DNA from: a virus
Taxonomy: Duplodnaviria > Caudoviricetes
DNA length: 64,000 bases
Reading direction: 5' to 3' (one strand)
Virus record (IMG/VR): IMGVR_UViG_3300025018_000091
Shown here: positions 3,524-42,184 of the stretch, piece by piece
Layout of the letters: each line of letters starts with the position of its first letter
Position numbering within the stretch: the first letter of the stretch is position 1
Notes under the pieces: generated by a model
Told to the model about the DNA's origin: nothing
What the model saw: only the letters and a program-made list of their open reading frames with translations
Databases searched by the model: none
Position numbers and translations under genes: made by a program

Positions 3524-3881
3524 TGGTGGAGATGCGGGGCTCCGACTCCCCGGTCCAAAGCATTCATCATCAAATATCGTTCACAGACTTAGCCAACATT
3601 AACGTTGATTGGCGACGTTGGTAAATACTCGCTTCACCAAACCAGTTACTGTTTATTTCGCTTGCAATTCCGTAACCAAATTGTTTGCTATTCTTCGTGG
3701 GTTAAATGTCTTTTGAGTACCAAGAATATCTCTTCTCAGACATTCCAATTAAGCAGCTTGTGCAACTGGAGCAAATGCGTTATCGTTTGCATTTATACGT
3801 TGGTTGCTTTTTAACGAGATTGCAATCATTCCCGGTCTGCATTTTGATTAAATCCTACCCTGTCGAATCCAATTCATCCCC
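3524..3881 (-). ncRNA. ssrA: tmRNA; tag reading frame 3790..3749 encodes ANDNAFAPVAQAA
   Basis: 5' GGGGATGAATTGGATTCGAC, 3' CATCTCCACCA, G3:U70 pair, resume codon GCA after ATAAAT, tag ending in AA-stop. Confidence 0.97.
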
Positions 3882-4991: not shown

Positions 4992-5065
4992 TGGAGCTGA
5001 CACCGAGTAATGCTCTCGGTTCCCAACATTACCACTGTTGAATAATACTTTTATACTATGTCAGC
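4992..5065 (-). tRNA. tRNA-Thr(GGT), atypical D/T loops
   Basis: Acceptor GCTGACA/TGTCAGC, anticodon arm CAACA-GT GGT AA-TGTTG, T arm CCGAG-AGCATTA-CTCGG, CCA. Confidence 0.8.
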
Positions 5066-5068
5066 ATT

Positions 5069-5144
5069 TGGAGCCCGCAATCGGATTTGAACCGACAATC
5101 TTTCGCTTACAGGGCGATTGCATAGCCAATCATGCTCTACGGGC
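5069..5144 (-). tRNA. tRNA-Thr(TGT)
   Basis: Canonical cloverleaf, GG in D loop, TTCAAAT T-loop, CCA. Confidence 0.95.
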
Positions 5145-7653: not shown

Positions 7654-8487
7654 TTATAAATACAATGCCTTTGTTTTATCTACAAATCTTAATATACTAG
7701 TTTCATCAACATAAGATGCCTCAGTAATTATTTTATAACCATTAGGAGAGCTTCTTGTTTCACCTGGACTTAATGGTTTTCCATTCTTCATTCTAATCAT
7801 AAACTCATCATAAGATTTTGTAAAATAATGATTAGTTTGGATTTTATCAACATACACGTCACCACATGAATGATCTGCTTCAGTAGTTCTATTTGAGCAG
7901 CCTTCACAATTACAAGATATACTTCCTATGATTTTTTGATTATTTTCTATTACTGCATAATGTGGTGATTTATATGCAAAACAATGAGAATCTTTAACTT
8001 TTTCAACCTTAGCTGGTTGTACTATACTTTTAACATGCCTATGCATACACCAATTTATTCTTGCAGCTTTTGTATAATTTTCTATAACTAATCCATCTGG
8101 TCTATGTATATGACCATTATTTCCAAAATATCTCCAATTACTACCTAATCCACCATACTGTTCATATTTAGATAATAATTCTGGAAGAGAATCATGTTGT
8201 TTAGGTACTAAAAATTCATCGACATCAATGAATGCCATCCATTTAGATTTATTACCAAAATTATTTAATGCATGAGTATATATCTCTATTTGTTTCTTTT
8301 TACCTGGAAACTCAGTAACAGTAACAAGACCTTGCTTTATATACTTATCTAATATTTTTTTTAATGGATTAGTGCTTTCATTATCATATATAAATATATG
8401 TTCAGCTCCAATAGCTCTATGATAATTAATCCATTCTTCTATATATAGATCTTCATTTTTAGCGGTACAAGCAACTGTTAAATACAT
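7654..8487 (-). CDS. Glycosyltransferase (GT-A fold, GT2/GT92-like)
   Basis: KNEDLYIEEWINYH, IYDNES, WMAFIDVDEF, NHYFTKS. Confidence 0.9.
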   Translation of the reverse strand: MYLTVACTAKNEDLYIEEWINYHRAIGAEHIFIYDNESTNPLKKILDKYIKQGLVTVTEFPGKKKQIEIYTHALNNFGNKSKWMAFIDVDEFLVPKQHDSLPELLSKYEQYGGLGSNWRYFGNNGHIHRPDGLVIENYTKAARINWCMHRHVKSIVQPAKVEKVKDSHCFAYKSPHYAVIENNQKIIGSISCNCEGCSNRTTEADHSCGDVYVDKIQTNHYFTKSYDEFMIRMKNGKPLSPGETRSSPNGYKIITEASYVDETSILRFVDKTKALYL

Positions 8488-12986: not shown

Positions 12987-14077
12987 TATTTTTCTCCAGA
13001 GATTAAGTTAAATAATTCTTTTCTCACTATAGCTGGATCTAAACTAGAATCAAGTGATATTAATTTCATGATTTTAAAACGCATAAACTCTGGAGGTAAT
13101 GGAGTTTTAGTATTTCTTATTTTAGGATGCTGAGTCGTGGTGGTTGTTTCATGACTAAAAGATAATTCTTCAAAGATTTTTTCTCCAGGTCTAATACCAG
13201 AAAATTCAATCTTTATATCAACATCTGGTACAAATCCAGATAGCTTAATCATATTTTTAGCTAAATCTAATATCTTTACAGATTCCCCCATATCTAAAAC
13301 ATATATAGATCCAGTTTCAGCAAAAACACTAGCTTGTAATAAAAGTCGTGCAGCCTCTGGAATTGTCATAAAAAATCTTGTCATATCTGGATGAGTAACT
13401 TTTACTGGTCCACCATTCTCAATTTGAGATTTAAAAATAGGAACAACACTTCCAGAACTTCCTAAAACATTTCCAAACCTCACTGTAATGAAACGAGTCT
13501 TAGGATATCTCTGAGAAAAAATCTGCATATAATATTCAGCAACTCGCTTTGTCGCCCCCATTACTGATGTAGGATTTACTGCCTTATCAGTAGATACAAA
13601 TATAAAAGCTTCCGCATCAACATAAGCTGACATGAAAGCAACAACTTGCGTCCCTAAAATATTATTTTGTATAGCCTCACTAGGATTAGCTTCACTCAAC
13701 GGTACATGCTTATTAGCTGCCGCATGATAGATAATCTGCGGCTGAGTCTCATCAAATATCGCTTTAGCTCTCGCTAGGTCTGCTACCGAACCAAGGCGAG
13801 GAATAACTTTAAGATTTGGATACTTTTCTTTTATTTCCTTTTCTAAGAAAAACTGATTGTTTTCATTATGATCAAAAAATATCAAAGATTCTGGATTAAA
13901 TTGCGCAATTTGTCTAACCAATTCATTACCAATACTTCCAGCCGCTCCAGTAATCATAACTCGTTTACCAGAAATGAAATTTGATATTTCTAAAGTATCA
14001 ATTTCAACTGGCTCACGACAAAGCAATTCTTCAATAGAAAAATCTCTCAATACAAGTGGATTTGAATTATTTGACAT
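12986..14077 (-). CDS. Nucleotide-sugar 4,6-dehydratase (CapD/PglF-like catalytic domain)
   Basis: ITGAAGSIG, HAAANKHVP, STDKAVNPTSVMGATKR, RFGNVLGSSGSV, GIRPGEK. Confidence 0.92.
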   Translation of the reverse strand: MSNNSNPLVLRDFSIEELLCREPVEIDTLEISNFISGKRVMITGAAGSIGNELVRQIAQFNPESLIFFDHNENNQFFLEKEIKEKYPNLKVIPRLGSVADLARAKAIFDETQPQIIYHAAANKHVPLSEANPSEAIQNNILGTQVVAFMSAYVDAEAFIFVSTDKAVNPTSVMGATKRVAEYYMQIFSQRYPKTRFITVRFGNVLGSSGSVVPIFKSQIENGGPVKVTHPDMTRFFMTIPEAARLLLQASVFAETGSIYVLDMGESVKILDLAKNMIKLSGFVPDVDIKIEFSGIRPGEKIFEELSFSHETTTTTQHPKIRNTKTPLPPEFMRFKIMKLISLDSSLDPAIVRKELFNLISGEK

Positions 14078-27745: not shown

Positions 27746-28909
27746 TTATTCAAACATCTTTACAAGAAATTTTTGAACATTATACCAAGAATATTTCGAC
27801 AGAGATCGCTCTACCAATTTGATACATAAAGCATCTAACTTTTTCTTATCTGGCTGTTTAGGCAGCGCATCAGTTGTCTTATATAGCTTATTCAACTCTT
27901 TATCTTCTCTTTCGGCAAATTCAATCAGCTGATCATAAGTCCAAGCCCCACGCCTAATATCTAACAATTCTTCCATATCTGGACGTTTTACAATGACTTT
28001 ACCAGTCGTTAAAGTCTCTCGACACATACGAATCAGCCTTACTAGATGATAAGCATGCTTTGTATCATATCCAAACTTTTCTTCAAGAGCAGCACGAGCA
28101 GGGTTACGAGTCTTCTTCCAATTTTGATATTGGTCCCACTCTTTCTTCTTTGTAGAATATTCTCGTTCTTTCTGCATTACTTGAATTAAATTATCAGTTA
28201 ACCCAATCTTACGAGCCGCTGCCGCCCAATGTTGGTCAGATGTGATTTTTAATTCAGCAAGCATCGTCGTCATAGTAGATCTGATTTCAATCTTTGCAGA
28301 CTCATCTAATCCTTCCAAAAAGTCCATCTGGAACCTATCAAGTTCCTTTTGAACCTCAGCATATGCTGCCATCAATTGGTCTTGAGGGATAAGAGTATGT
28401 TCAGGTAAACCAAGCTCTGCCCTTGTTGGGGGTTTGCCTGGAGGATTCATTATCCATTTCTTATGGGTTTTGATCCTTTTCAGCTGAGAAATAGAATAAC
28501 CCATAAAGGTATGCTTAATTCTTTTAGAAAGAAAGTCATCCTTATGAGCTAAGATAGTTTCACCAATTGGATCTACGATACAATGATCAGATGGGTCTGT
28601 ATGAAGAACTTCAATGATGTTGGGGTTACAATCTGCTGCAAGTGTGAAGAACTTTCTTAGATCATAAATGACTGCATCTGGTTCATGAAGCTCTGCTTGT
28701 TCGAATCTATGCTGTGACCCAAGAAAATATTCTTTAGGAGGAATTGCAATTCCCTTAAAATCTTCATCACTCTCAGGAGTGCTAGTTCCATAGGCATGAG
28801 AACCATGACGAACTAATAATACAGTTCTGTCACTAATCCATTTTAAATGTGGACTATTGTTTATAATTTTTGGAATTACAACATCTTTCATTTCAAATAA
28901 TTTTACCAT
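27746..28909 (-). CDS. Pol-beta superfamily nucleotidyltransferase (RlaP-like)
   Basis: HGSHAYGTSTPESDEDFKG, NPNIIE, YDTKHAYHLVRL. Confidence 0.88.
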   Translation of the reverse strand: MVKLFEMKDVVIPKIINNSPHLKWISDRTVLLVRHGSHAYGTSTPESDEDFKGIAIPPKEYFLGSQHRFEQAELHEPDAVIYDLRKFFTLAADCNPNIIEVLHTDPSDHCIVDPIGETILAHKDDFLSKRIKHTFMGYSISQLKRIKTHKKWIMNPPGKPPTRAELGLPEHTLIPQDQLMAAYAEVQKELDRFQMDFLEGLDESAKIEIRSTMTTMLAELKITSDQHWAAAARKIGLTDNLIQVMQKEREYSTKKKEWDQYQNWKKTRNPARAALEEKFGYDTKHAYHLVRLIRMCRETLTTGKVIVKRPDMEELLDIRRGAWTYDQLIEFAEREDKELNKLYKTTDALPKQPDKKKLDALCIKLVERSLSKYSWYNVQKFLVKMFE

Positions 28910-35619: not shown

Positions 35620-37227
35620 TTATGCCCTTAAGTCAAACACTCTACCGAATGGCGGTGTAAATGCACTTCCACTTGTAATCAGCCAGATAACATCTTTACC
35701 AGGATTTTTCATCTCTACGATATCAGAATCCAATAAAAATCCATCTGTAATTACAATTAGAAAGTCACAATGACCAAGATTTTGTTCATAATTTTCAAAG
35801 AAATCGGCAAATTTGGTTCCACCTCTGCCATATACTTTTACTTTCATAAGTTCTTCTTGATCAGCCTTTTTGATCTTAACAGCCTTGTCCCAATAGATTT
35901 CTGCATCGGCTGGAACGATTGTTCCTTCCGCACGCTCATCTAAAGCGCATAGCTGAGATAAACCGAATGCCATATCGTCCTTACCCATAGAACCACTAGT
36001 ATCAAGTAAACAACCAAAATGAGCATAATAGTTCCTTCTTTTAGGAACAAGCAACCCTACAAACATAGGACGAGTTCTAAATCTAGTCCAATCATTACGA
36101 CCATTTCCTGCTCTAGCTTTTATTAAACGAGTACGAATAATATCTTGCCAAGTAACTTTAGGTGCAGTCAATTTGCCTAACTCATCTTCTAGCGCAGCAG
36201 GAACATGCCCTGCCATTTTCTTTGCAGCTTCCATAGCATCAGAGATTCTCTTAGCTAATTTCTCTTCAGATTCTTCTGTATCCATGTGGTCATCTAAAGT
36301 TCCACCGAATCCAAAGATATCAAAACCACCGCCACATTCTGGGCAACTCCCTCCTCCACAGCTTGGACATTGGTCATCATCACCTTGATCGTCACCATTA
36401 CTGGGATTATTTCCCTTTCCCTTTTCCTTACCTTTCCCATCACCTTTGCCTTTATCTTTACCTTTTTGACCAGATTTAGGGAACTTATACATACCAACAC
36501 TGCCGCATTTAGGACACTTAGGTAGTAAGTTATATAGCATATCGTAAATCTTTTCGGGGCGTTTCATTTCCTCTTCTAGATCCGGATCAGCATAATAAAA
36601 CTTAACTGACTTCTCCCTGCGTTCTAATTCTTTTTGTTCTTGAGGAGTTAGTTCTCTATCTTCATTCGGCTTAGGAAGGCTAATATGTGGGTCTTGGTCA
36701 AATCCTGGGTGTAAATCTTCAAATCCTTTTGGTGGATGGAATGGATCTTTAAGCAACTTGGCATATGCTTTTAGCGGCATATATCTTCCCACTTCCTTAG
36801 TGAAGACGTCATGGGGATTATGTTTTCTTGCTTTTAAGTCTTCCATACAAGTACCGTTAACAATATAGTCGACGGCGATGTTCCATAGCTTAGGTATACG
36901 AGAACCTCTGCGTTGAGGGTGCATATAAATTGCGTGCCATGCTTCATGGCTACAGATAATACGCAATCCCTTTCGACTTGTTTTTAAAACGAATTTTGGA
37001 TTCCAATAATACCTTTTGCCATCAGTTGCGGCGGTAGGCATATTAAGAGTACAGATGTGATCTATTGGATACATTAAACCAAAAATCAGCGGGTCTCCAC
37101 CTAAACCTGTACCAACGTGTTCGTTGTTATATCTTGTACCTAATTCTAAAAAGACCTGTGATAATTTTTCTTCAGCTTTGGCGACTAACTTATCATCAAC
37201 CTTACCAATGATTCTAGAAAATTTCAT
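35620..37227 (-). CDS. HEXXH metallopeptidase-like plus VWA domain protein
   Basis: TAATDG, HEAWH, WNIAVD; LDTSGSM, GRGGT, VITDG. Confidence 0.9.
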   Translation of the reverse strand: MKFSRIIGKVDDKLVAKAEEKLSQVFLELGTRYNNEHVGTGLGGDPLIFGLMYPIDHICTLNMPTAATDGKRYYWNPKFVLKTSRKGLRIICSHEAWHAIYMHPQRRGSRIPKLWNIAVDYIVNGTCMEDLKARKHNPHDVFTKEVGRYMPLKAYAKLLKDPFHPPKGFEDLHPGFDQDPHISLPKPNEDRELTPQEQKELERREKSVKFYYADPDLEEEMKRPEKIYDMLYNLLPKCPKCGSVGMYKFPKSGQKGKDKGKGDGKGKEKGKGNNPSNGDDQGDDDQCPSCGGGSCPECGGGFDIFGFGGTLDDHMDTEESEEKLAKRISDAMEAAKKMAGHVPAALEDELGKLTAPKVTWQDIIRTRLIKARAGNGRNDWTRFRTRPMFVGLLVPKRRNYYAHFGCLLDTSGSMGKDDMAFGLSQLCALDERAEGTIVPADAEIYWDKAVKIKKADQEELMKVKVYGRGGTKFADFFENYEQNLGHCDFLIVITDGFLLDSDIVEMKNPGKDVIWLITSGSAFTPPFGRVFDLRA

Positions 37228-37263
37228 ATGAACTCCAATTCATTATATATCTTAAGGTTGCTA

Positions 37264-38391
37264 TCAGTCATCTACTTGCTTCTTGATCTTATTAAGAACC
37301 TCTTCCCAATCAGGATGTTCATCTAGATTAAATTGAACTAAACGATCAATTTGAATTTGGCTACGAACAGCGACCAAAACATTTTCATACGAAACCCTTT
37401 GGAGGAACTTACCTACATGTTTAATGGATGGAGGAGGTTCATTTTCATTAGATTGATCTAATTGAGTTGCTAAGCGAGCACAAGTAATCATACAGGCTAC
37501 CAACTTCTTAGTAGGAGCCATAGGATTATATCTACTAGATACATCTTTGCCTTCATAGATATCTTCAATCATTGGCAACAGTTCTTGATAATGCTCGTAA
37601 TAGCTAGAATATTTAAGCCCTGCGTCTTTACCAACACACCCAGATACCTTAGTATTAAGGAGTGTAGTGTTCCATCCATGAGCTTCACCTTTATATAGCA
37701 GTTGTGAAGCTCTATCCCAACCTCTAGGAGAAGGGTCAGCATATCGATCATCTGGGTCTACATTACCAAAAAGATCCCTTGGATGGTCAGTAATATATGC
37801 AGTAACAGATGGATGAATGTGACCTCTCTTACCTGCCCATTCAAGCCAGGACGTGGCATCAGCTTCAACCAAATACTTTTCAGACCTATCTAAAAGAGGT
37901 AGGCTTGGTCTTGCGCCACCTTCAGAAATCAAGTTACCAGTCATAATAATTGACTTTAATTGTGGCAATGGACGACCATTAATTGATCTAAACTGAGTAA
38001 ACTCTAATAAAGGAGCCCAAAGGGAAGTATCTGCTTTATCTACTTCATCTAATAGTGCAACAACGCCTTCACTGCCATCAACCATGGGTTCATAGAATTG
38101 AGGTAGTAGGAAATCTACGAATTTTCGTTGTAGATTTGCTGCCATAATATTTGGATAACCGCCCATATCTACTCTTTCAAGCACAGAAAGATTAAGATAA
38201 ACTTCATGCATTCCAGCCTTTTTGATTTGATATTTGGCGATTTCGGTCTTACCGGTTCCTCTTCGACCAAACACTGCAATGTTACTATCCACTTGAATAG
38301 CAGCAGCTATATGTTCTGACAAATCTTTTGTGCTTAGTTTCTGCAGATTGAAATCAGAAGTGGTCATTACCTGTTGTTGCGTTTGAGCCAT
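37264..38391 (-). CDS. MoxR-like AAA+ ATPase (partner of VWA gene)
   Basis: GRRGTGKT, LLDEVDK, TGN, LLDR, SPRGW. Confidence 0.9.
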   Translation of the reverse strand: MAQTQQQVMTTSDFNLQKLSTKDLSEHIAAAIQVDSNIAVFGRRGTGKTEIAKYQIKKAGMHEVYLNLSVLERVDMGGYPNIMAANLQRKFVDFLLPQFYEPMVDGSEGVVALLDEVDKADTSLWAPLLEFTQFRSINGRPLPQLKSIIMTGNLISEGGARPSLPLLDRSEKYLVEADATSWLEWAGKRGHIHPSVTAYITDHPRDLFGNVDPDDRYADPSPRGWDRASQLLYKGEAHGWNTTLLNTKVSGCVGKDAGLKYSSYYEHYQELLPMIEDIYEGKDVSSRYNPMAPTKKLVACMITCARLATQLDQSNENEPPPSIKHVGKFLQRVSYENVLVAVRSQIQIDRLVQFNLDEHPDWEEVLNKIKKQVDD

Positions 38392-38417
38392 CTTATTCTC
38401 CGTGTAAATCCATAAAT

Positions 38418-38446
38418 ACAATAATCATCGGCAATTTGAATGTCAA
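38418..38446 (-). promoter_or_regulatory. Promoter variant TTGACA-N17-TATTGT
   Basis: Upstream of the AAA-VWA pair; one base shorter than the other copies. Confidence 0.6.
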
Positions 38447-38462
38447 TGCCGTGTAAAATAAT

Positions 38463-38768
38463 TCAATTCAAATTTTTAGAATCGCTTGCAATGTTTAGTT
38501 TATTATTTTTGTAATCATCTAAAAATTGCCGATGTACTTGCCAGACATCTTTTCCAAATGACATTTTTCCTGCTGTGAACTGGATCCGGACAATTAATGA
38601 ATCTGGACAAGAAAGTTTTTCTAATTCTTCACAAAGCCACAATCCGGCATAACATACTTCTCTAATAACTGGGGATTCAATTAAACCCTTTGGCAATCTA
38701 TCATCATTATCAATTTCTTTGGACCAACGACTGATATCATCAGTCGAGATAAAGCTCGGTCTAGACAT
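38463..38768 (-). CDS. Hypothetical protein
   Basis: Start set at MSRPSF; the longer track start overlaps a tRNA. Confidence 0.6.
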   Translation of the reverse strand: MSRPSFISTDDISRWSKEIDNDDRLPKGLIESPVIREVCYAGLWLCEELEKLSCPDSLIVRIQFTAGKMSFGKDVWQVHRQFLDDYKNNKLNIASDSKNLN

Positions 38769-38787
38769 ATATAAATCCTTAATAAAC

Positions 38788-38813
38788 AAAAAAGGCTCCA
38801 ATATGGAACCTTT
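38788..38813 (-). terminator. Rho-independent terminator after tRNA-Arg(ACG)
   Basis: AAAGGTTCCA-TAT-TGGAGCCTTT followed by a T run. Confidence 0.7.
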
Positions 38814-38889
38814 GGTATCCCCGGCAGGACTCGAACCTGCAATCTTCGCGTTCGTAGCGCGCTGCATTAATCCATTGTGCTACGGGGAC
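38813..38889 (-). tRNA. tRNA-Arg(ACG)
   Basis: Cloverleaf, CT ACG AA loop, TTCGAGT, CCA. Confidence 0.95.
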
Positions 38890-38895
38890 ATAAAC

Positions 38896-39189
38896 TTACC
38901 AATTAATATATACAAAGTCTTCAGAATCATAATCAGTATTGGAATACCAATTAGTAATTTCACTATCTATCTTACAAGCATAACCTTCTTTTGATAAAAT
39001 CGTCATTGCTTTGCGAAGAATATCTATTGTGAAGGGAAGTTTGGATACTTCGGTTCTCATTCCAAAGTTTCCTAGCTTTGCACTAGAAATAGATAGATTT
39101 CGCAGATATTCGGCTGCTGACTTAGCTTTATCTTGAGACTGGGCGTTGCTTACTTTCTCAGCCATCTTACGTAATTCATGCGCTAACAT
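38896..39189 (-). CDS. Hypothetical protein
   Basis: ORF between tRNAs with SD GAGG. Confidence 0.6.
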   Translation of the reverse strand: MLAHELRKMAEKVSNAQSQDKAKSAAEYLRNLSISSAKLGNFGMRTEVSKLPFTIDILRKAMTILSKEGYACKIDSEITNWYSNTDYDSEDFVYINW

Positions 39190-39207
39190 AGTAACTTACC
39201 TCGTTGT

Positions 39208-39280
39208 TGGCACCCCTGCTAGGATTCGAACCTAGACAAAGAGCTTCGTAGACTCTTGCGTAATCCATTACGACAGGGGT
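39208..39280 (-). tRNA. tRNA-Arg(ACG), second copy
   Basis: ACCCCTG/CAGGGGT, AGAGT-CT ACG AA-GCTCT, TTCGAAT, CCA. Confidence 0.92.
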
Positions 39281-39286
39281 ATAAGT

Positions 39287-39358
39287 TGGCACCCCATAGA
39301 GGAGTTGAACCTCTTGGCTGAGTTTAGAAGACTCTGCTGCAGTTCCGCTGCATGGGGC
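39287..39358 (-). tRNA. tRNA-Arg(TCT), short D arm
   Basis: GCCCCAT/ATGGGGT, GAGT-CT TCT AA-ACTC, TTCAACT, CCA. Confidence 0.8.
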
Positions 39359-39373
39359 ATATATTATCAAACG

Positions 39374-39448
39374 TGGTGGATATGATAGGAATTACACCTA
39401 CTGCTCCCGATTCTCGTTTCTACTAAATGGTTAATCGGTCCCATACCC
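39374..39448 (-). ncRNA. tRNA-sized alanine-acceptor-like RNA lacking D and anticodon arms
   Basis: GGGTATG/CATATCC-A-CCA with G3:U70; T arm GTAGG-TGTAATT-CCTAT; single inner helix CCGATT/AATCGG. Confidence 0.65.
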
Positions 39449-39452
39449 ATTA

Positions 39453-39528
39453 TGGTGATCCCAACGGGATTCGAACCCGTATTATCAACGTGAGAGGCTG
39501 GTGTCCTGAGCCATTAGACGATGGGACC
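39453..39528 (-). tRNA. tRNA-Glu(CTC)
   Basis: GGTCCCA/TGGGATC, CT CTC AC loop, TTCGAAT, CCA. Confidence 0.95.
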
Positions 39529-39532
39529 ATTT

Positions 39533-39607
39533 TGGTGTGATCAATGGAATTTGAATCCATTCTAACTGAGTCACAATCAGTCGTGCAACCAATACACTAT
39601 GATCACC
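39533..39607 (-). tRNA. tRNA-His(GTG) with genomic G-1
   Basis: G-GTGATCA/TGATCAC-A-CCA, ACTGA-TT GTG AC-TCAGT, TTCAAAT. Confidence 0.95.
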
Positions 39608-39615
39608 ATAATTAT

Positions 39616-40077
39616 TTACTTAATTTTCCTGCCCCAATTACTGGTTTGAGAGTGACAATTTGGACATAAAAATCTAAGATTTTCCAACCTATTATTTAAC
39701 GGGTTTCCATCTTTATGATCAATTTGTAAAACTAACGGCTTATCATTCCAATAAGAAATTATACCACAAATGTCACATTTTTCTTTTACATTCGATTCCA
39801 ATAAAGCTCTTCGTAATTTATATGCTGTTTCGCGCAATCCATTTCTTCTATTGTAAGTTAATATTACATCTTTATTTAATTTGCCAGTATAATATTTCCC
39901 TCCTTTATTTGCGGCACATCCCAAAAAATGTGATGTATCAATTCCATATTCTACTATTATTTTTTTTTATATGAGACCATGAAGATCCATTTTTATGATG
40001 GAATCCTAATTTTTTCATTACTTCTAAAATAGAAAAAGATTCTTTTACAATTGGCTCAAGAATTTCTTTTGTAAAAC
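39616..40077 (-). pseudogene. HNH endonuclease lacking a start codon and frameshifted at A9 (39960-39968)
   Basis: CDICG, LQIDHKDG, NLRFLCPNCHSQT; upstream frame FTKEILEPIVKES joins if one A is removed. Confidence 0.75.
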
Positions 40078-40121
40078 CAAGTGTCTGAGACTTGTATGTA
40101 TGCCAGTTCCATCACCTAAGC
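40078..40121 (-). pseudogene. 5' half of tRNA-Leu(CAG)
   Basis: GCTTAGG, Leu-type D arm, CAAGT-CT CAG AC-ACTTG, then HNH coding sequence; no T arm or 3' acceptor found. Confidence 0.75.
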
Positions 40122-40123
40122 AT

Positions 40124-40211
40124 TGGTGCCGATGGTGGGACTCGAACCCACACGAGAATTAACCCCGGAAGTTTTTGAGACTTCTGCGTCTGCCAATTCC
40201 GCCACACCGGC
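40124..40211 (-). tRNA. tRNA-Leu(CAA)
   Basis: Type II tRNA, GAAGT-CT CAA AA-ACTTC, long variable arm, TTCGAGT, CCA. Confidence 0.96.
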
Positions 40212-40268
40212 ATATCTTATATGTTCTGTTAGTAATATATCGTAAGATTTATTTCCTCTCCTGAACAC

Positions 40269-40296
40269 AATGTAAATCTTTATTTTTGCCTGTCAA
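40269..40296 (-). promoter_or_regulatory. Promoter TTGACA-N16-TACATT driving tRNA cluster 2
   Basis: Intergenic, conserved spacing. Confidence 0.75.
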
Positions 40297-40324
40297 GCCC
40301 TCGCATTTTTTTTATTTTGCATGC

Positions 40325-40792
40325 TTATTTATTTGGATTTATTATTAAAATTTCTTTTCCAACCGTTTTTGCATAAGCAATACAATTAGCTGTTCCCCCA
40401 GAAGTACCATCATGGATTCCAATTAGAAGATCACATTGATCTACCATCCACATATTCCTAATCTGCATTTTATGTGAACTATATCCTGATTCACTTGTAT
40501 ATACAATATCATGTGCTTTAGATAAAAGCTTTTGATAAATTATCTGCGAAGAATCTGGCCATTTCTTTTCCTGACCTTCAAAGGGCACCGCCGCAATAAA
40601 TGGAATCTTTAATTTTATAGCTATATTTGCTGCCCACTGGTCAACGCCTAATGCCATTCCAGAAATAATCTTTTCAGGTTTAAATTCTCGTAAATGCTTA
40701 TCAATTTGTTGACAAACATGAATGTAAGTTGGGTTTGGAAGATTATATCCGCCAAGTTTATTAGGTCTATGACCAGTAAATGCAATAATCAT
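40325..40792 (-). CDS. SLOG family protein (YspA/DUF1273-like)
   Basis: AFTGHRP, SGMALGVD, RNMWMVD, GGTANC. Confidence 0.88.
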   Translation of the reverse strand: MIIAFTGHRPNKLGGYNLPNPTYIHVCQQIDKHLREFKPEKIISGMALGVDQWAANIAIKLKIPFIAAVPFEGQEKKWPDSSQIIYQKLLSKAHDIVYTSESGYSSHKMQIRNMWMVDQCDLLIGIHDGTSGGTANCIAYAKTVGKEILIINPNK

Positions 40793-41196
40793 TTATACAA
40801 TCTCCATTTATACAATCTCTCTTGGTCTTTTTTCCAAGCATAATAAGATTTACGCCACTTTTCCTTACGAAGACATCCACAAGACTTAATTCCTTTATTA
40901 AAATCGTTAACTTGATAATACTTTATATTACCACATTCGCATTTACATTTGAGCTTATATTTAAATTGTTTAGATGGTAATTGAACAACTTCGATTACTT
41001 CTAACCGACCATAAATATTGCCAACCAATTTAAGTGTGCTTTCTTTCTGAAGAAAAAGAATTTCTCCATTATCTAACTTAATAGCAGCAATACCATTGTC
41101 TCCATAAATTACTTTAGTAATAGTTCTTCCAATCAGAACTTCATTCCAAAAAAGGTTTATTGAGACTATTCTTTTCCCATTTTTTCTTATATTCAA
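40789..41196 (-). CDS. Hypothetical protein with endonuclease-associated Zn motif
   Basis: YGRLEVI...CKCECGN...KSCGCL. Confidence 0.6.
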   Translation of the reverse strand: MNIRKNGKRIVSINLFWNEVLIGRTITKVIYGDNGIAAIKLDNGEILFLQKESTLKLVGNIYGRLEVIEVVQLPSKQFKYKLKCKCECGNIKYYQVNDFNKGIKSCGCLRKEKWRKSYYAWKKDQERLYKWRLYK

Positions 41197-41459
41197 GAGT
41201 CATCGTATTCCATTTCTGCTCTATTTATCATATCCATAAATTCTTCACGCAATTCATTATATTCAATATTTCTTTGAAGATATATAATGTGCATAAATTG
41301 CCCGGCAAGATCTCCAAGATAATCATACTTAATTTTTACTTTGCCATGAACAATGGTATTGATATGAGATGTAAACTCAGCAGCACCATCAGCACTATCA
41401 AAGCCTAATACTATTGGCAAATTTACTCTAATATCTTTTGGTTTAATATTAATATTCAT
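41193..41459 (-). CDS. Hypothetical protein
   Basis: ATGA-coupled ORF. Confidence 0.55.
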   Translation of the reverse strand: MNINIKPKDIRVNLPIVLGFDSADGAAEFTSHINTIVHGKVKIKYDYLGDLAGQFMHIIYLQRNIEYNELREEFMDMINRAEMEYDDS

Positions 41460-42184
41460 TTTATTTCTATCGTATGATACGTCGTTGCAGCATTAGAAAC
41501 CAACATATTTCCTCTAATGGCAAGTCCATTAGCTTCATGACAATGCCCATGCAATAAATATGTTGGCAATCTTTTATCATTCACTTTATAGTCTAAAGCG
41601 TTAGTTATAACAGAACTGCCTATAGTATCATTGCCGTGAGTTAAATCAAGCATTTGATACAATGGGGCATGTGTCACCAACACATCTACAAAAGATTCAT
41701 TTAAAGCCTTGACCATTTTCTCGACTTCTAATTCCATTTCTGGAACTTCTCTTTCATAATTAAACATTCCATTTATCGCTGGAACATACGGAAATCCATA
41801 AAAAGTAACGTCTTTATGCAACACAACCTGTTCTGTAAGATTAATGGCTTTTATACCTTCAGATGCAAGAGTTTGAGCCATTAGTTGTGGATGTAAGAAA
41901 TCATGATTGCCAAGAATAAAAAGAAGCGGTCTTCCTTGAAGCCATACCTTAATATTTCTTATATTCTGACTTAACCAATCCAGCTGAAAAGCCATCTCTT
42001 GTGTTAGGTTTTTATTCATAAATGCAGTAGAATTAGGAAAAAAATCACCAGAATGAACTACTGCGTCAAATTTACCACGTAATGTAGGAAATCCACCATG
42101 TGTATCAGAAATATGACAAACTCTCATTTTATATTTCCTTGCAACAACATCAGATACTCTTTTTATTCTAGATACATTAACCAT
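41456..42184 (-). CDS. Calcineurin-like metallophosphoesterase
   Basis: SDTHG, HSGD, GNHD, THAP, HGHCHE. Confidence 0.92.
   Translation of the reverse strand: MVNVSRIKRVSDVVARKYKMRVCHISDTHGGFPTLRGKFDAVVHSGDFFPNSTAFMNKNLTQEMAFQLDWLSQNIRNIKVWLQGRPLLFILGNHDFLHPQLMAQTLASEGIKAINLTEQVVLHKDVTFYGFPYVPAINGMFNYEREVPEMELEVEKMVKALNESFVDVLVTHAPLYQMLDLTHGNDTIGSSVITNALDYKVNDKRLPTYLLHGHCHEANGLAIRGNMLVSNAATTYHTIEIK

Follow-up and report, generated by a model that had tools for sequence, protein, structure and literature searches.

The question raised by the locus described here is what kind of gene, if any, is represented by a transfer RNA (tRNA)-sized unit that carries an alanine-type acceptor end and has no anticodon. 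This unit, referred to below as the element, is 75 nucleotides (nt) long, is tRNA-shaped, and occupies positions 39374-39448 (minus strand) in a tRNA cluster of a giant groundwater phage, or megaphage (Duplodnaviria; Caudoviricetes). The DNA analysed is a stretch of 64,000 nt from the IMG/VR record IMGVR_UViG_3300025018_000091, and this whole stretch is termed the window. An initial annotation, made without database searches, had described the element as a mini tmRNA-like acceptor (tmRNA, transfer-messenger RNA) that could be charged with alanine and yet be unable to decode. The explanation that we favour, and which we hold at about even weight, is that the element is a genuine gene for a small RNA within the tRNA operon of the phage, viz. 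an anticodon-less alanine-type mimic of the same kind as one encoded by Mycobacterium phage DS6A but more reduced, and that it acts as a non-decoding mimic.

An anticodon-less unit with an alanine-type acceptor

As the initial annotation had claimed, the element is spaced like a tRNA gene within the cluster: it starts 4 nt past the CCA of its upstream neighbour tRNA-Glu(ctc) (39453-39528; identified by ARAGORN and Rfam) and stops 15 nt ahead of G1 of the downstream tRNA-Arg(tct) (39287-39358; identified by ARAGORN, with a reduced D arm), both of which are on the same minus strand and read in the same transcript direction. All of the parts described below are likewise on the minus strand. The 5' strand of the acceptor, GGGUAUG (positions 1-7 of the element; 39442-39448, with G3 at 39446), forms 7/7 pairs with 39378-39384 at pair probabilities of 0.97-1.0, and the third of these pairs is G3:U70. 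The 3' strand, CAUAUCC (with U70 at 39380), is followed by the discriminator A (A73, at 39377) and by an encoded CCA (39374-39376), so that the 3' end as a whole takes up 39374-39384. The T arm, GUAGG-UGUAAUU-CCUAU (positions 48-64; 39385-39401), is made up of a stem of 5 base pairs (bp) and the 7-nt loop UGUAAUU, in which U54 and A58 are kept and GU replaces the usual pseudouridine-C at positions 55-56. In the place where the D and anticodon arms belong there is a single 6-bp helix, formed by CCGAUU (positions 11-16; 39433-39438) and AAUCGG (positions 37-42; 39407-39412) and capped by the 20-nt loop AACCAUUUAGUAGAAACGAG (positions 17-36; 39413-39432). This helix is separated from the acceptor by three unpaired nucleotides, GGA (39439-39441), and it is followed on its 3' side by the linker GAGCA (39402-39406). 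All of the helices are intact (18/18 pairs), and the minimum free energy and centroid folds give exactly the same three-helix shape, the acceptor pairs having probabilities of about 1.0 and those of the central helix and the T stem of about 0.8. Thus the perfect acceptor with its G3:U70 pair, discriminator A and CCA, the T arm, and the helix with a 20-nt loop replacing two arms of the cloverleaf are present in the sequence and in the fold as the initial annotation had them. The central helix is the weaker part of this evidence, as shuffling of the middle 40 nt also yields a perfect 6-bp helix in 3% of cases. The 20-nt loop has no complementary site within the window, and among the loci compared it is found only in the closest relative described below. 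It includes the stretch AUU UAG UAG AAA and thus contains a tandem UAG UAG, which is a post hoc observation.

The element is lacking the D and anticodon arms of the cloverleaf; it is anticodon-less and is not a canonical tRNA. When ARAGORN was applied to the element in its default, relaxed, mitochondrial and intron modes, nothing was called in register, and a search of 38600-40400 against Rfam gave no family at E <= 10, including the tRNA family, RF00023, RF02544 and the other tmRNA models. An enumeration of hairpins in the middle of the element likewise found none of the 5-bp-stem/7-nt-loop type with at least 4 pairs, the best having at most 3/5. The ARAGORN modes and this enumeration together rule out an alternative cloverleaf or an intron-containing tRNA, and the absence of an anticodon claimed earlier therefore stands. 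A Y RNA of the YrlA type was also considered, for which a Ro-binding end stem and a circularly permuted tRNA-like module were required. In the element, the termini form an acceptor stem with a free CCA and no Y-RNA family is matched in Rfam at E <= 10, and this candidate was rejected.

A unit of this shape is not in itself rare, as in 60 simulated windows the combination of a 7/7 acceptor, a 5/5 T stem and CCA was seen 0.75 times per window. In the same simulations units of the alanine type (G3:U70 plus A73) were seen 0.083 times per window, and this figure was set before requiring that the unit be positioned in the 90-nt slot between its neighbours. Since an alanine-type unit must, in addition, fall in this slot and on the right strand, the contribution of chance is negligible. 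The standard finders of tRNAs and tmRNAs miss genes of this kind, and due to this they are probably under-counted in phage genomes.

Relationship to reduced tmRNAs and to other tRNA-like RNAs

The idea of a mini tmRNA-like molecule is not new, as tmRNAs consisting of the tRNA-like domain (TLD) only have been published (PMC4131195, PMC11915505, PMC3590771). The one most similar in layout to the element is the TLD-only tmRNA of Mycobacterium phage DS6A (tmRNA Website tmID 11587), described by Hudson, Lau and Williams in 2014 (PMC4131195; see also PMC11915505). In its gene, which we located at 28478-28560 of the DS6A record (L086), a G3:U70 acceptor is followed by a D-loop analogue of 14 nt, by a helix of 5 bp that carries a 20-nt loop and by a canonical T arm, and the gene ends in ACUA. 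Like the element, this RNA is phage-encoded, is of the size of a tRNA (83 versus 75 nt), has no anticodon, and has an acceptor with G3:U70 and A73 and a T arm arranged in the same order of parts. In both of them a single helix with a 20-nt loop (5 bp in DS6A and 6 bp in the element) is present instead of the pseudoknots and the open reading frame (ORF) for the tag. The element thus has the G3:U70/A/CCA acceptor, the stacked T arm and the pseudoknot-free, tag-less, helix-2-like stem of the TLD-only kind. However, the D-loop analogue of a tmRNA, which we take to be a single-stranded segment of about 10-14 nt that links the acceptor to helix 2 and carries a conserved motif of the UCGA type, is 14 nt long in DS6A (with GGUCGAC replacing the UUCGAC of the model consensus) and only 3 nt long in the element. 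The two RNAs differ further in that the T loop of DS6A is the canonical UUCGAUU whereas that of the element is UGUAAUU, the DS6A gene ends in ACUA whereas the element encodes ACCA, and the DS6A RNA scores 43.2 bits with the Rfam tmRNA model, which does not match the element at E <= 10. In addition, the DS6A record yielded no full-length tmRNA, whereas the phage studied here has one. Because of the reduction of the D-loop analogue to 3 nt and the lack of a score with the tmRNA model, the element is not filed as a member of the published TLD-only kind, and its sequence is best described as that of a further-reduced variant of it.

This difference bears on the protein SmpB, which grips the elbow of the tmRNA via the D-loop analogue and whose binding requires the contacts between the D and T loops (PMC3968760). 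Strong inhibition of tmRNA in E. coli has been described for a molecule resembling that of DS6A, in chargeable as well as in non-chargeable form, and titration of SmpB is perhaps the cause (PMC4131195, citing Mao et al. 2009). The initial annotation had named SmpB among the proteins for which the element could be a decoy, and this suggestion is weakened, as the D-loop analogue that binds at the elbow is cut to 3 nt (PMC3968760) and the tmRNA model is blind to the element. As this analogue is missing, canonical capture by SmpB is less likely for the element than for the DS6A RNA.

Reduced tmRNAs are also known from organelles, viz. plastid tmRNAs of about 65 bp without a coding sequence in Mallomonadaceae (PMC11915505) and jakobid mitochondrial tmRNAs without an mRNA-like domain (PMC3590771, citing Jacob et al. 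2004). A survey of huge phages reports tmRNAs and SmpB but, in the passages searched, no such mini form (PMC7162821). The organellar RNAs share with the element an alanine-type tRNA-like domain without the mRNA-like domain, and in the literature they are taken to free stalled ribosomes without tagging. Unlike the element, however, they belong to organelles, most of them are permuted and in two pieces, an SmpB is present alongside them, and their descent from tmRNA is demonstrable.

A stack of an acceptor and a T arm with G3:U70 and A73 suffices for charging by alanyl-tRNA synthetase (AlaRS) and for recognition by RNase P. The synthetic minihelices and microhelices of tRNA-Ala, which reportedly go back to Francklyn and Schimmel in 1989, differ from the element in being laboratory constructs without an extra helix. 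The element also has U4:A69 where the E. coli tRNA-Ala has G4:C69. The tRNA cluster of phage T4 encodes two stable RNAs, species 1 and 2 (rnaC and rnaD), which are not tRNAs, are matured by the tRNA processing machinery and have no known function. They are longer than the element (about 120-140 nt), and to our knowledge no alanine identity set has been reported for them.

In regard to the origin of the element, resemblances are seen to both tmRNAs and tRNA-Leu. The full-length tmRNA of this phage is located at 3524-3881 (minus strand; RF00023, 115 bits), and its acceptor, GGGGAUG/CAUCUCC, differs from GGGUAUG/CAUAUCC of the element by one compensated pair (4:69), as had been pointed out initially. 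The T arms of these two RNAs are, however, unrelated, and no parent tRNA with the acceptor or the T arm of the element is found in any relative, which bears on a derivation from the tmRNA or tRNA-Ala of this phage or its relatives. When the pattern of the T loop and the 3' end was searched for in metagenomes, 23 sites were found, and 8/23 of these are the 3' ends of full-length tmRNAs (94-118 bits in Rfam). These 8 ends read ...GGGGUGUAAUUCCCCUCAUCUCCACCA, and the element matches them at 22 of the last 25 positions; together with the layout shared with DS6A, this makes the comparison with the tRNA-like domain of tmRNA an apt one. In genomes, the same type of tmRNA is that of Patescibacteria (viz. 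Komeilibacteria, Saccharimonadales and a metagenome-assembled genome (MAG) labelled 'Patescibacteria group'). The D-loop analogue of these tmRNAs is without GG, which would fit a T loop whose positions 55-56 (GU) no longer dock the D loop. The UGUAAUU T loop is also found in an ordinary phage tRNA (the tRNA-Phe of L032), and due to this its presence should not be interpreted as diagnostic of a tmRNA. As an observation in its own right, the tmRNAs with the UGUAAUU T loop and the GG-less D-loop analogue, which are present in three Patescibacteria genomes (L070, L072 and L073) and in L042, L044, L045, L053, L054, L057 and L058, suggest a tmRNA subtype of the candidate phyla radiation with a co-varying loss of the contact between the D and T loops.

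By alignment, the nearest tRNAs are the class II tRNA-Leu genes of the related phages (score of 62 versus 48 +/- 3 for shuffles, or about 4 standard deviations), and the 37 nt at the 3' end of the element are about 80% like tRNA-Leu(tag) of L017. These genes (L017:7469-7552 and L026:6197-6283) have in common with the element the T stem GUAGG/CCUAU, an ACCA end and, ahead of the T arm, the sequence 'UCGGGAG', but, unlike the element, they have D and anticodon arms and a canonical T loop and are without G3:U70. The similarity is weak and partly a generic tRNA signal. It is known that helix 2 of tmRNA mimics a long variable arm (PMC3968760). The element may be derived from either a tmRNA domain or a tRNA-Leu.

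Several other unusual tRNA-like RNAs were encountered in these searches. Two unrelated viral or metagenome contigs (L033:518-630 and L056:~13208-13320, both plus strand) contain a 113-nt RNA with the acceptor GGGCCAG/CUGGUCC, including G3:U70, A73 and CCA, and with a D arm of the tRNA-Leu type. The T arm, AUAGG-UGUAAUU-CCUAU, matches the T arm of the element at 16/17 positions, a 4-bp/5-nt hairpin and a long hairpin replace the anticodon arm, and the two copies differ by one compensatory change from C-G to A-U. Neither ARAGORN nor Rfam calls this RNA, and no match for it was found in cultured phages. Related RNAs of about 80-95 nt, with the UGUAAUU T loop, an ACCA end and a 'GCGUAAAAGGCGAAUGUC...GGUAAGUGA' core, are present on the minus strands of L048 (6934-7030) and L052 (2238-2320); they match no family and have no obvious anticodon arm. 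Lastly, an 80-nt AT-rich tRNA with G3:U70, A73 and the loop CUUUAUG (anticodon UUA) ends at 1715 on the minus strand of L069 (uncultured Clostridia MAG, CANQJH010000008.1), and from its sequence it is a candidate for an alanine-inserting suppressor of UAA stops.

Conservation, distribution and genomic setting

For comparison, 28 related loci were retrieved from IMG/VR via a neighbouring AAA-type protein (contigs of 6-450 kb; 61-86% protein identity), and the Leu-His-Glu-Arg cluster is common to them. The element is present in only 1/28 of these loci, that of the closest relative, IMGVR_UViG_3300004210_000005 (L001 and L002; L050 is the same contig). In this relative, the element is identical at 74/75 positions (98.7%), the sole natural variant being U49C (at 39400). 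The flanking coding DNA in long alignments is 68-77% identical between the window and L002, the 97-codon ORF of the cluster (ORF97) is 73% identical and the 350 nt downstream of the cluster are 72% identical. The values for the tRNAs are 93% for tRNA-Glu, 100% for tRNA-Arg(tct), 97% for tRNA-Arg(acg) and 98.7% for the third tRNA-Arg, which is isolated between diverged DNA, and for these four bona fide tRNAs together 290/298 positions are identical. The spacers of the cluster taken together are identical at 45/53 positions (85%). In Fisher tests, the identity of the element exceeds that of the spacers (p = 0.004) and that of the coding flanks (p = 4e-9), and no difference from the true tRNAs is seen (p = 0.69). 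Had the sequence been a neutral relic, about 20 changes would have been expected instead of the one observed, barring a recent exchange of the tract. With one relative compared, this conservation suggests constraint on the element and is moderate, not decisive, support for it.

Beyond this relative, the searches returned no further homologue. The sole true copy found by DNA pattern scans of IMG/VR, the JGI metagenomes and the GTDB genomes is that in L001/L050, and no diverged copy was seen in three further IMG/VR scans by pattern, in the scan of the metagenomes or in that of the genomes. A BLAST search of the element against 50,697 phage records gave chance matches only (E >= 2). The same two alleles occur in short contigs assembled from four other runs (labels: freshwater sediment, landfill, groundwater and freshwater); an aquifer run also has the element but is possibly not independent of the DNA of the window. 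No RNA run is among those listed for the element. A covariance model of the element (R1) was built and searched against the relatives, and beyond the window and L002 it matched only class II tRNA-Leu genes, a real tRNA-Phe and one partial sequence in L030. The latter match (29 bits) lies in an intergenic repeat region and is without CCA or a proper acceptor, and it was judged not to be homologous. The region itself (L030:1255-1747, from the genome of L008) is about 490 nt long and contains repeated 'CACCUAGGCAAGUGU...' and 'CAAUCUAAUAGGACCG.GGAUAGU' units. This distribution is that of a recent gain by one shallow lineage, or of a loss everywhere else.

Two further candidates for a counterpart at the same place in the cluster were rejected. 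The first tRNA-Arg(tct) of L011 and L012 showed no similarity to the element on alignment. In L019 (306-384, plus strand) and L026 (~7885-7965, plus strand), D-arm-less tRNA-Arg(UCU)-like genes of 79-81 nt are located between tRNA-Glu(ctc) and tRNA-Arg(gcg), i.e. in the same place in the cluster, but their architecture is different. These genes have a normal 7-nt anticodon loop, UUUCUAC, and a 20-nt unpaired variable region, and their acceptor and anticodon stems differ between the two copies yet stay paired; ARAGORN misses both of them. Odd or degenerate tRNAs are in fact numerous in the related phages.

The cluster in the window reads, all on the minus strand, Leu, HNH gene, His, Glu, element, Arg, Arg, 97-codon ORF and Arg. 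A consensus scan places a promoter-like site upstream of tRNA-Leu (40269-40296, minus strand), which may be the start of a tRNA transcription unit, although the number of such sites in the window is not above chance, and the same kind of scan places a terminator-like hairpin with a T run directly past the last tRNA-Arg of the cluster (38791-38813, minus strand). The HNH endonuclease gene (39616-39924, minus strand) is located just upstream of tRNA-His, and the identity of this tRNA to its counterpart in L002 is no more than 61%, compared with 93-100% for its neighbours. The segment 39533-39924 (minus strand) thus looks like one in which a tRNA gene was replaced together with a homing endonuclease. 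A metallophosphoesterase gene is present at 41456-42184, about 2 kb upstream of the element, and no integrase gene was found among the eight neighbouring ORFs scanned (35620-42184). Elsewhere in the window, a 74-nt tRNA-shaped gene (4992-5065, minus strand) adjoins an Rfam tRNA (5072-5144). The acceptor of this gene is perfect, its anticodon-like loop is GUGGUAA (GGU, Thr) and its T loop, AGCAUUA, is odd; the gene is called neither by ARAGORN nor by Rfam at the gathering threshold.

Proposed role and competing explanations

In the explanation favoured here, the element would be co-transcribed with the neighbouring tRNAs, as its spacing and strand suggest, and a cut by RNase P at G1 followed by trimming to the encoded CCA would yield a stable 75-nt RNA. 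A 12-bp stack of the acceptor and T arm, a U at position -1 and ACCA make up a minimal substrate of RNase P. The RNA would then be charged by the host AlaRS via G3:U70, A73 and G2:C71, which suffice for this enzyme even in minihelices. As a non-decoding molecule it may act as a mimic of, or competitor for, Ala-tRNA or tmRNA with respect to their factors, viz. AlaRS, EF-Tu, possibly SmpB, and enzymes or toxins acting at the acceptor end. Neither SmpB nor AlaRS is encoded in the five near-complete relatives, and therefore any such partner would be a host protein. Charging, binding of EF-Tu and service as a non-ribosomal donor of alanine, all proposed in the initial annotation, are purely what we infer, and the support for a function consists of the intact structure and one conservation comparison.

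A number of observations weigh against this explanation. The GGA segment of 3 nt falls short of the D-loop analogue not only of DS6A but also of the model consensus (10-11 nt), and no tmRNA model of Rfam matches the element at E <= 10. A general inhibitor of trans-translation would also hit the full tmRNA of the phage itself. The fold of the whole element is not more stable than that of shuffles (z = -0.92), no covariation is available for it, and the U49C variant changes a U-A pair of the T stem to a C.A mismatch without compensation. The element is restricted to one lineage, being absent from 27/28 of the related loci, and no copy was seen anywhere in five large relatives, of which four are at least 97% complete; in L010 (80% protein identity), tRNA-Glu is joined to tRNA-Arg(tct) by 12 nt. 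Further, the 19 nt of spacer that adjoin the element do not differ from those of L002 either, and all five differences in tRNA-Glu sit in its 5' half. Due to these last two observations, 39287-39483 could have been exchanged recently as one tract, in which case the element could owe its conservation to hitch-hiking.

The main alternative is a neutral relic, i.e. a tRNA (perhaps a class II tRNA-Leu) or the tRNA-like domain of a tmRNA that has lost its middle by deletion or rearrangement, is still excised via the surviving acceptor/T-arm half, has no function of its own and is hitch-hiking in a recombination tract. We regard this as possible, although rather unlikely. It would be consistent with the confinement to one shallow lineage, with the best pairwise matches to tRNA-Leu of the relatives noted above, with the only variant being uncompensated, with the many odd or degenerate tRNAs of related phages, and with the modest support for the central helix (p ~0.03) and for the fold (z-score of -0.9). 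However, in a decaying tRNA it is not expected that all 18 pairs are intact, that the G:U pair is exactly at 3:70 and that A73 and CCA are kept. Decay also predicts about 20 changes unless there was recent exchange, whereas the element is identical at 74/75 positions against 72-73% for the coding flanks and 85% for the other spacers, in a single comparison in which the adjacent 19-nt spacer is identical too. Nor was a tRNA with this acceptor or T arm, from which it could have decayed, found in any relative. The sole homologue is nearly identical and the other relatives are simply without the unit, so that the homologues speak neither for nor against an ordinary tRNA in decay.

The remaining alternatives account for less. 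A mark of processing punctuation, like the t-elements of plant mitochondria or mascRNA, which is kept only for the correct separation of the neighbouring tRNAs by RNase P and 3' trimming, would explain a minimal RNase P substrate between two tRNAs, and tRNA-like punctuation is known elsewhere (PMC1920247). We consider it quite improbable, as the flanking genes are themselves tRNAs that need no extra signal, as L010 and several other relatives join Glu directly to Arg without the element (spacers of about 8 to 33 nt), and as G3:U70 and A73 are unnecessary for such a role. The presence of the HNH gene, the probable replacement of the adjoining tRNA-His and the resemblance of the 3' 25 nt to tmRNA 3' ends, which are frequent targets of integrases, bring to mind a scar or cargo of DNA mobility, in which recombination of the integration type, or driven by a homing endonuclease, left the copied 3' end of a tRNA or tmRNA behind in a mosaic cluster. 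A bare 3'-end copy, however, would not bring a matching 5' acceptor strand, a G1 at the spacing of a tRNA and a separate internal helix, and in the absence of an integrase from the neighbouring ORFs scanned this explanation appears very improbable. It will also be incorrect, in all probability, to interpret the tandem UAG UAG as a micro-tmRNA, in which, after the transfer of alanine, these codons are read as in-frame stops that release the stalled peptide. Although natural tmRNA tags can be as short as 2 residues (PMC11915505), a 20-nt loop on a 6-bp helix atop the tRNA-like domain could hardly get as far as the decoding centre, as we infer from the structures reviewed in PMC3968760, there is neither a resume codon context nor a pseudoknot, binding of SmpB is doubtful, and the observation of the stops was post hoc; this alternative is hardly credible.

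A more specific form of the proposal that the element is a non-decoding mimic, which we consider improbable, is that it is a dedicated alanine-charged acceptor outside of normal decoding. It could in this case be a decoy for host defence enzymes that act at the acceptor/CCA end of (aminoacyl-)tRNAs, or it could compete independently of SmpB and in this way tune the ribosome rescue of the host while sparing the tmRNA of the phage. If either of these were true, the element would represent a functional class distinct from the TLD-only tmRNAs of the DS6A type.

Only one cultured phage and a few organelles are known to have RNAs that retain just the alanine end of a tmRNA, and little work has been done on what these RNAs do. 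What is new here is a megaphage that has a full tmRNA and, besides it, a more reduced alanine mimic without the elbow to which SmpB binds. If the element is functional, the acceptor/T-arm half alone would be a useful mimic, and phages would use several distinct tools on the axis of alanine, tmRNA and ribosome rescue.

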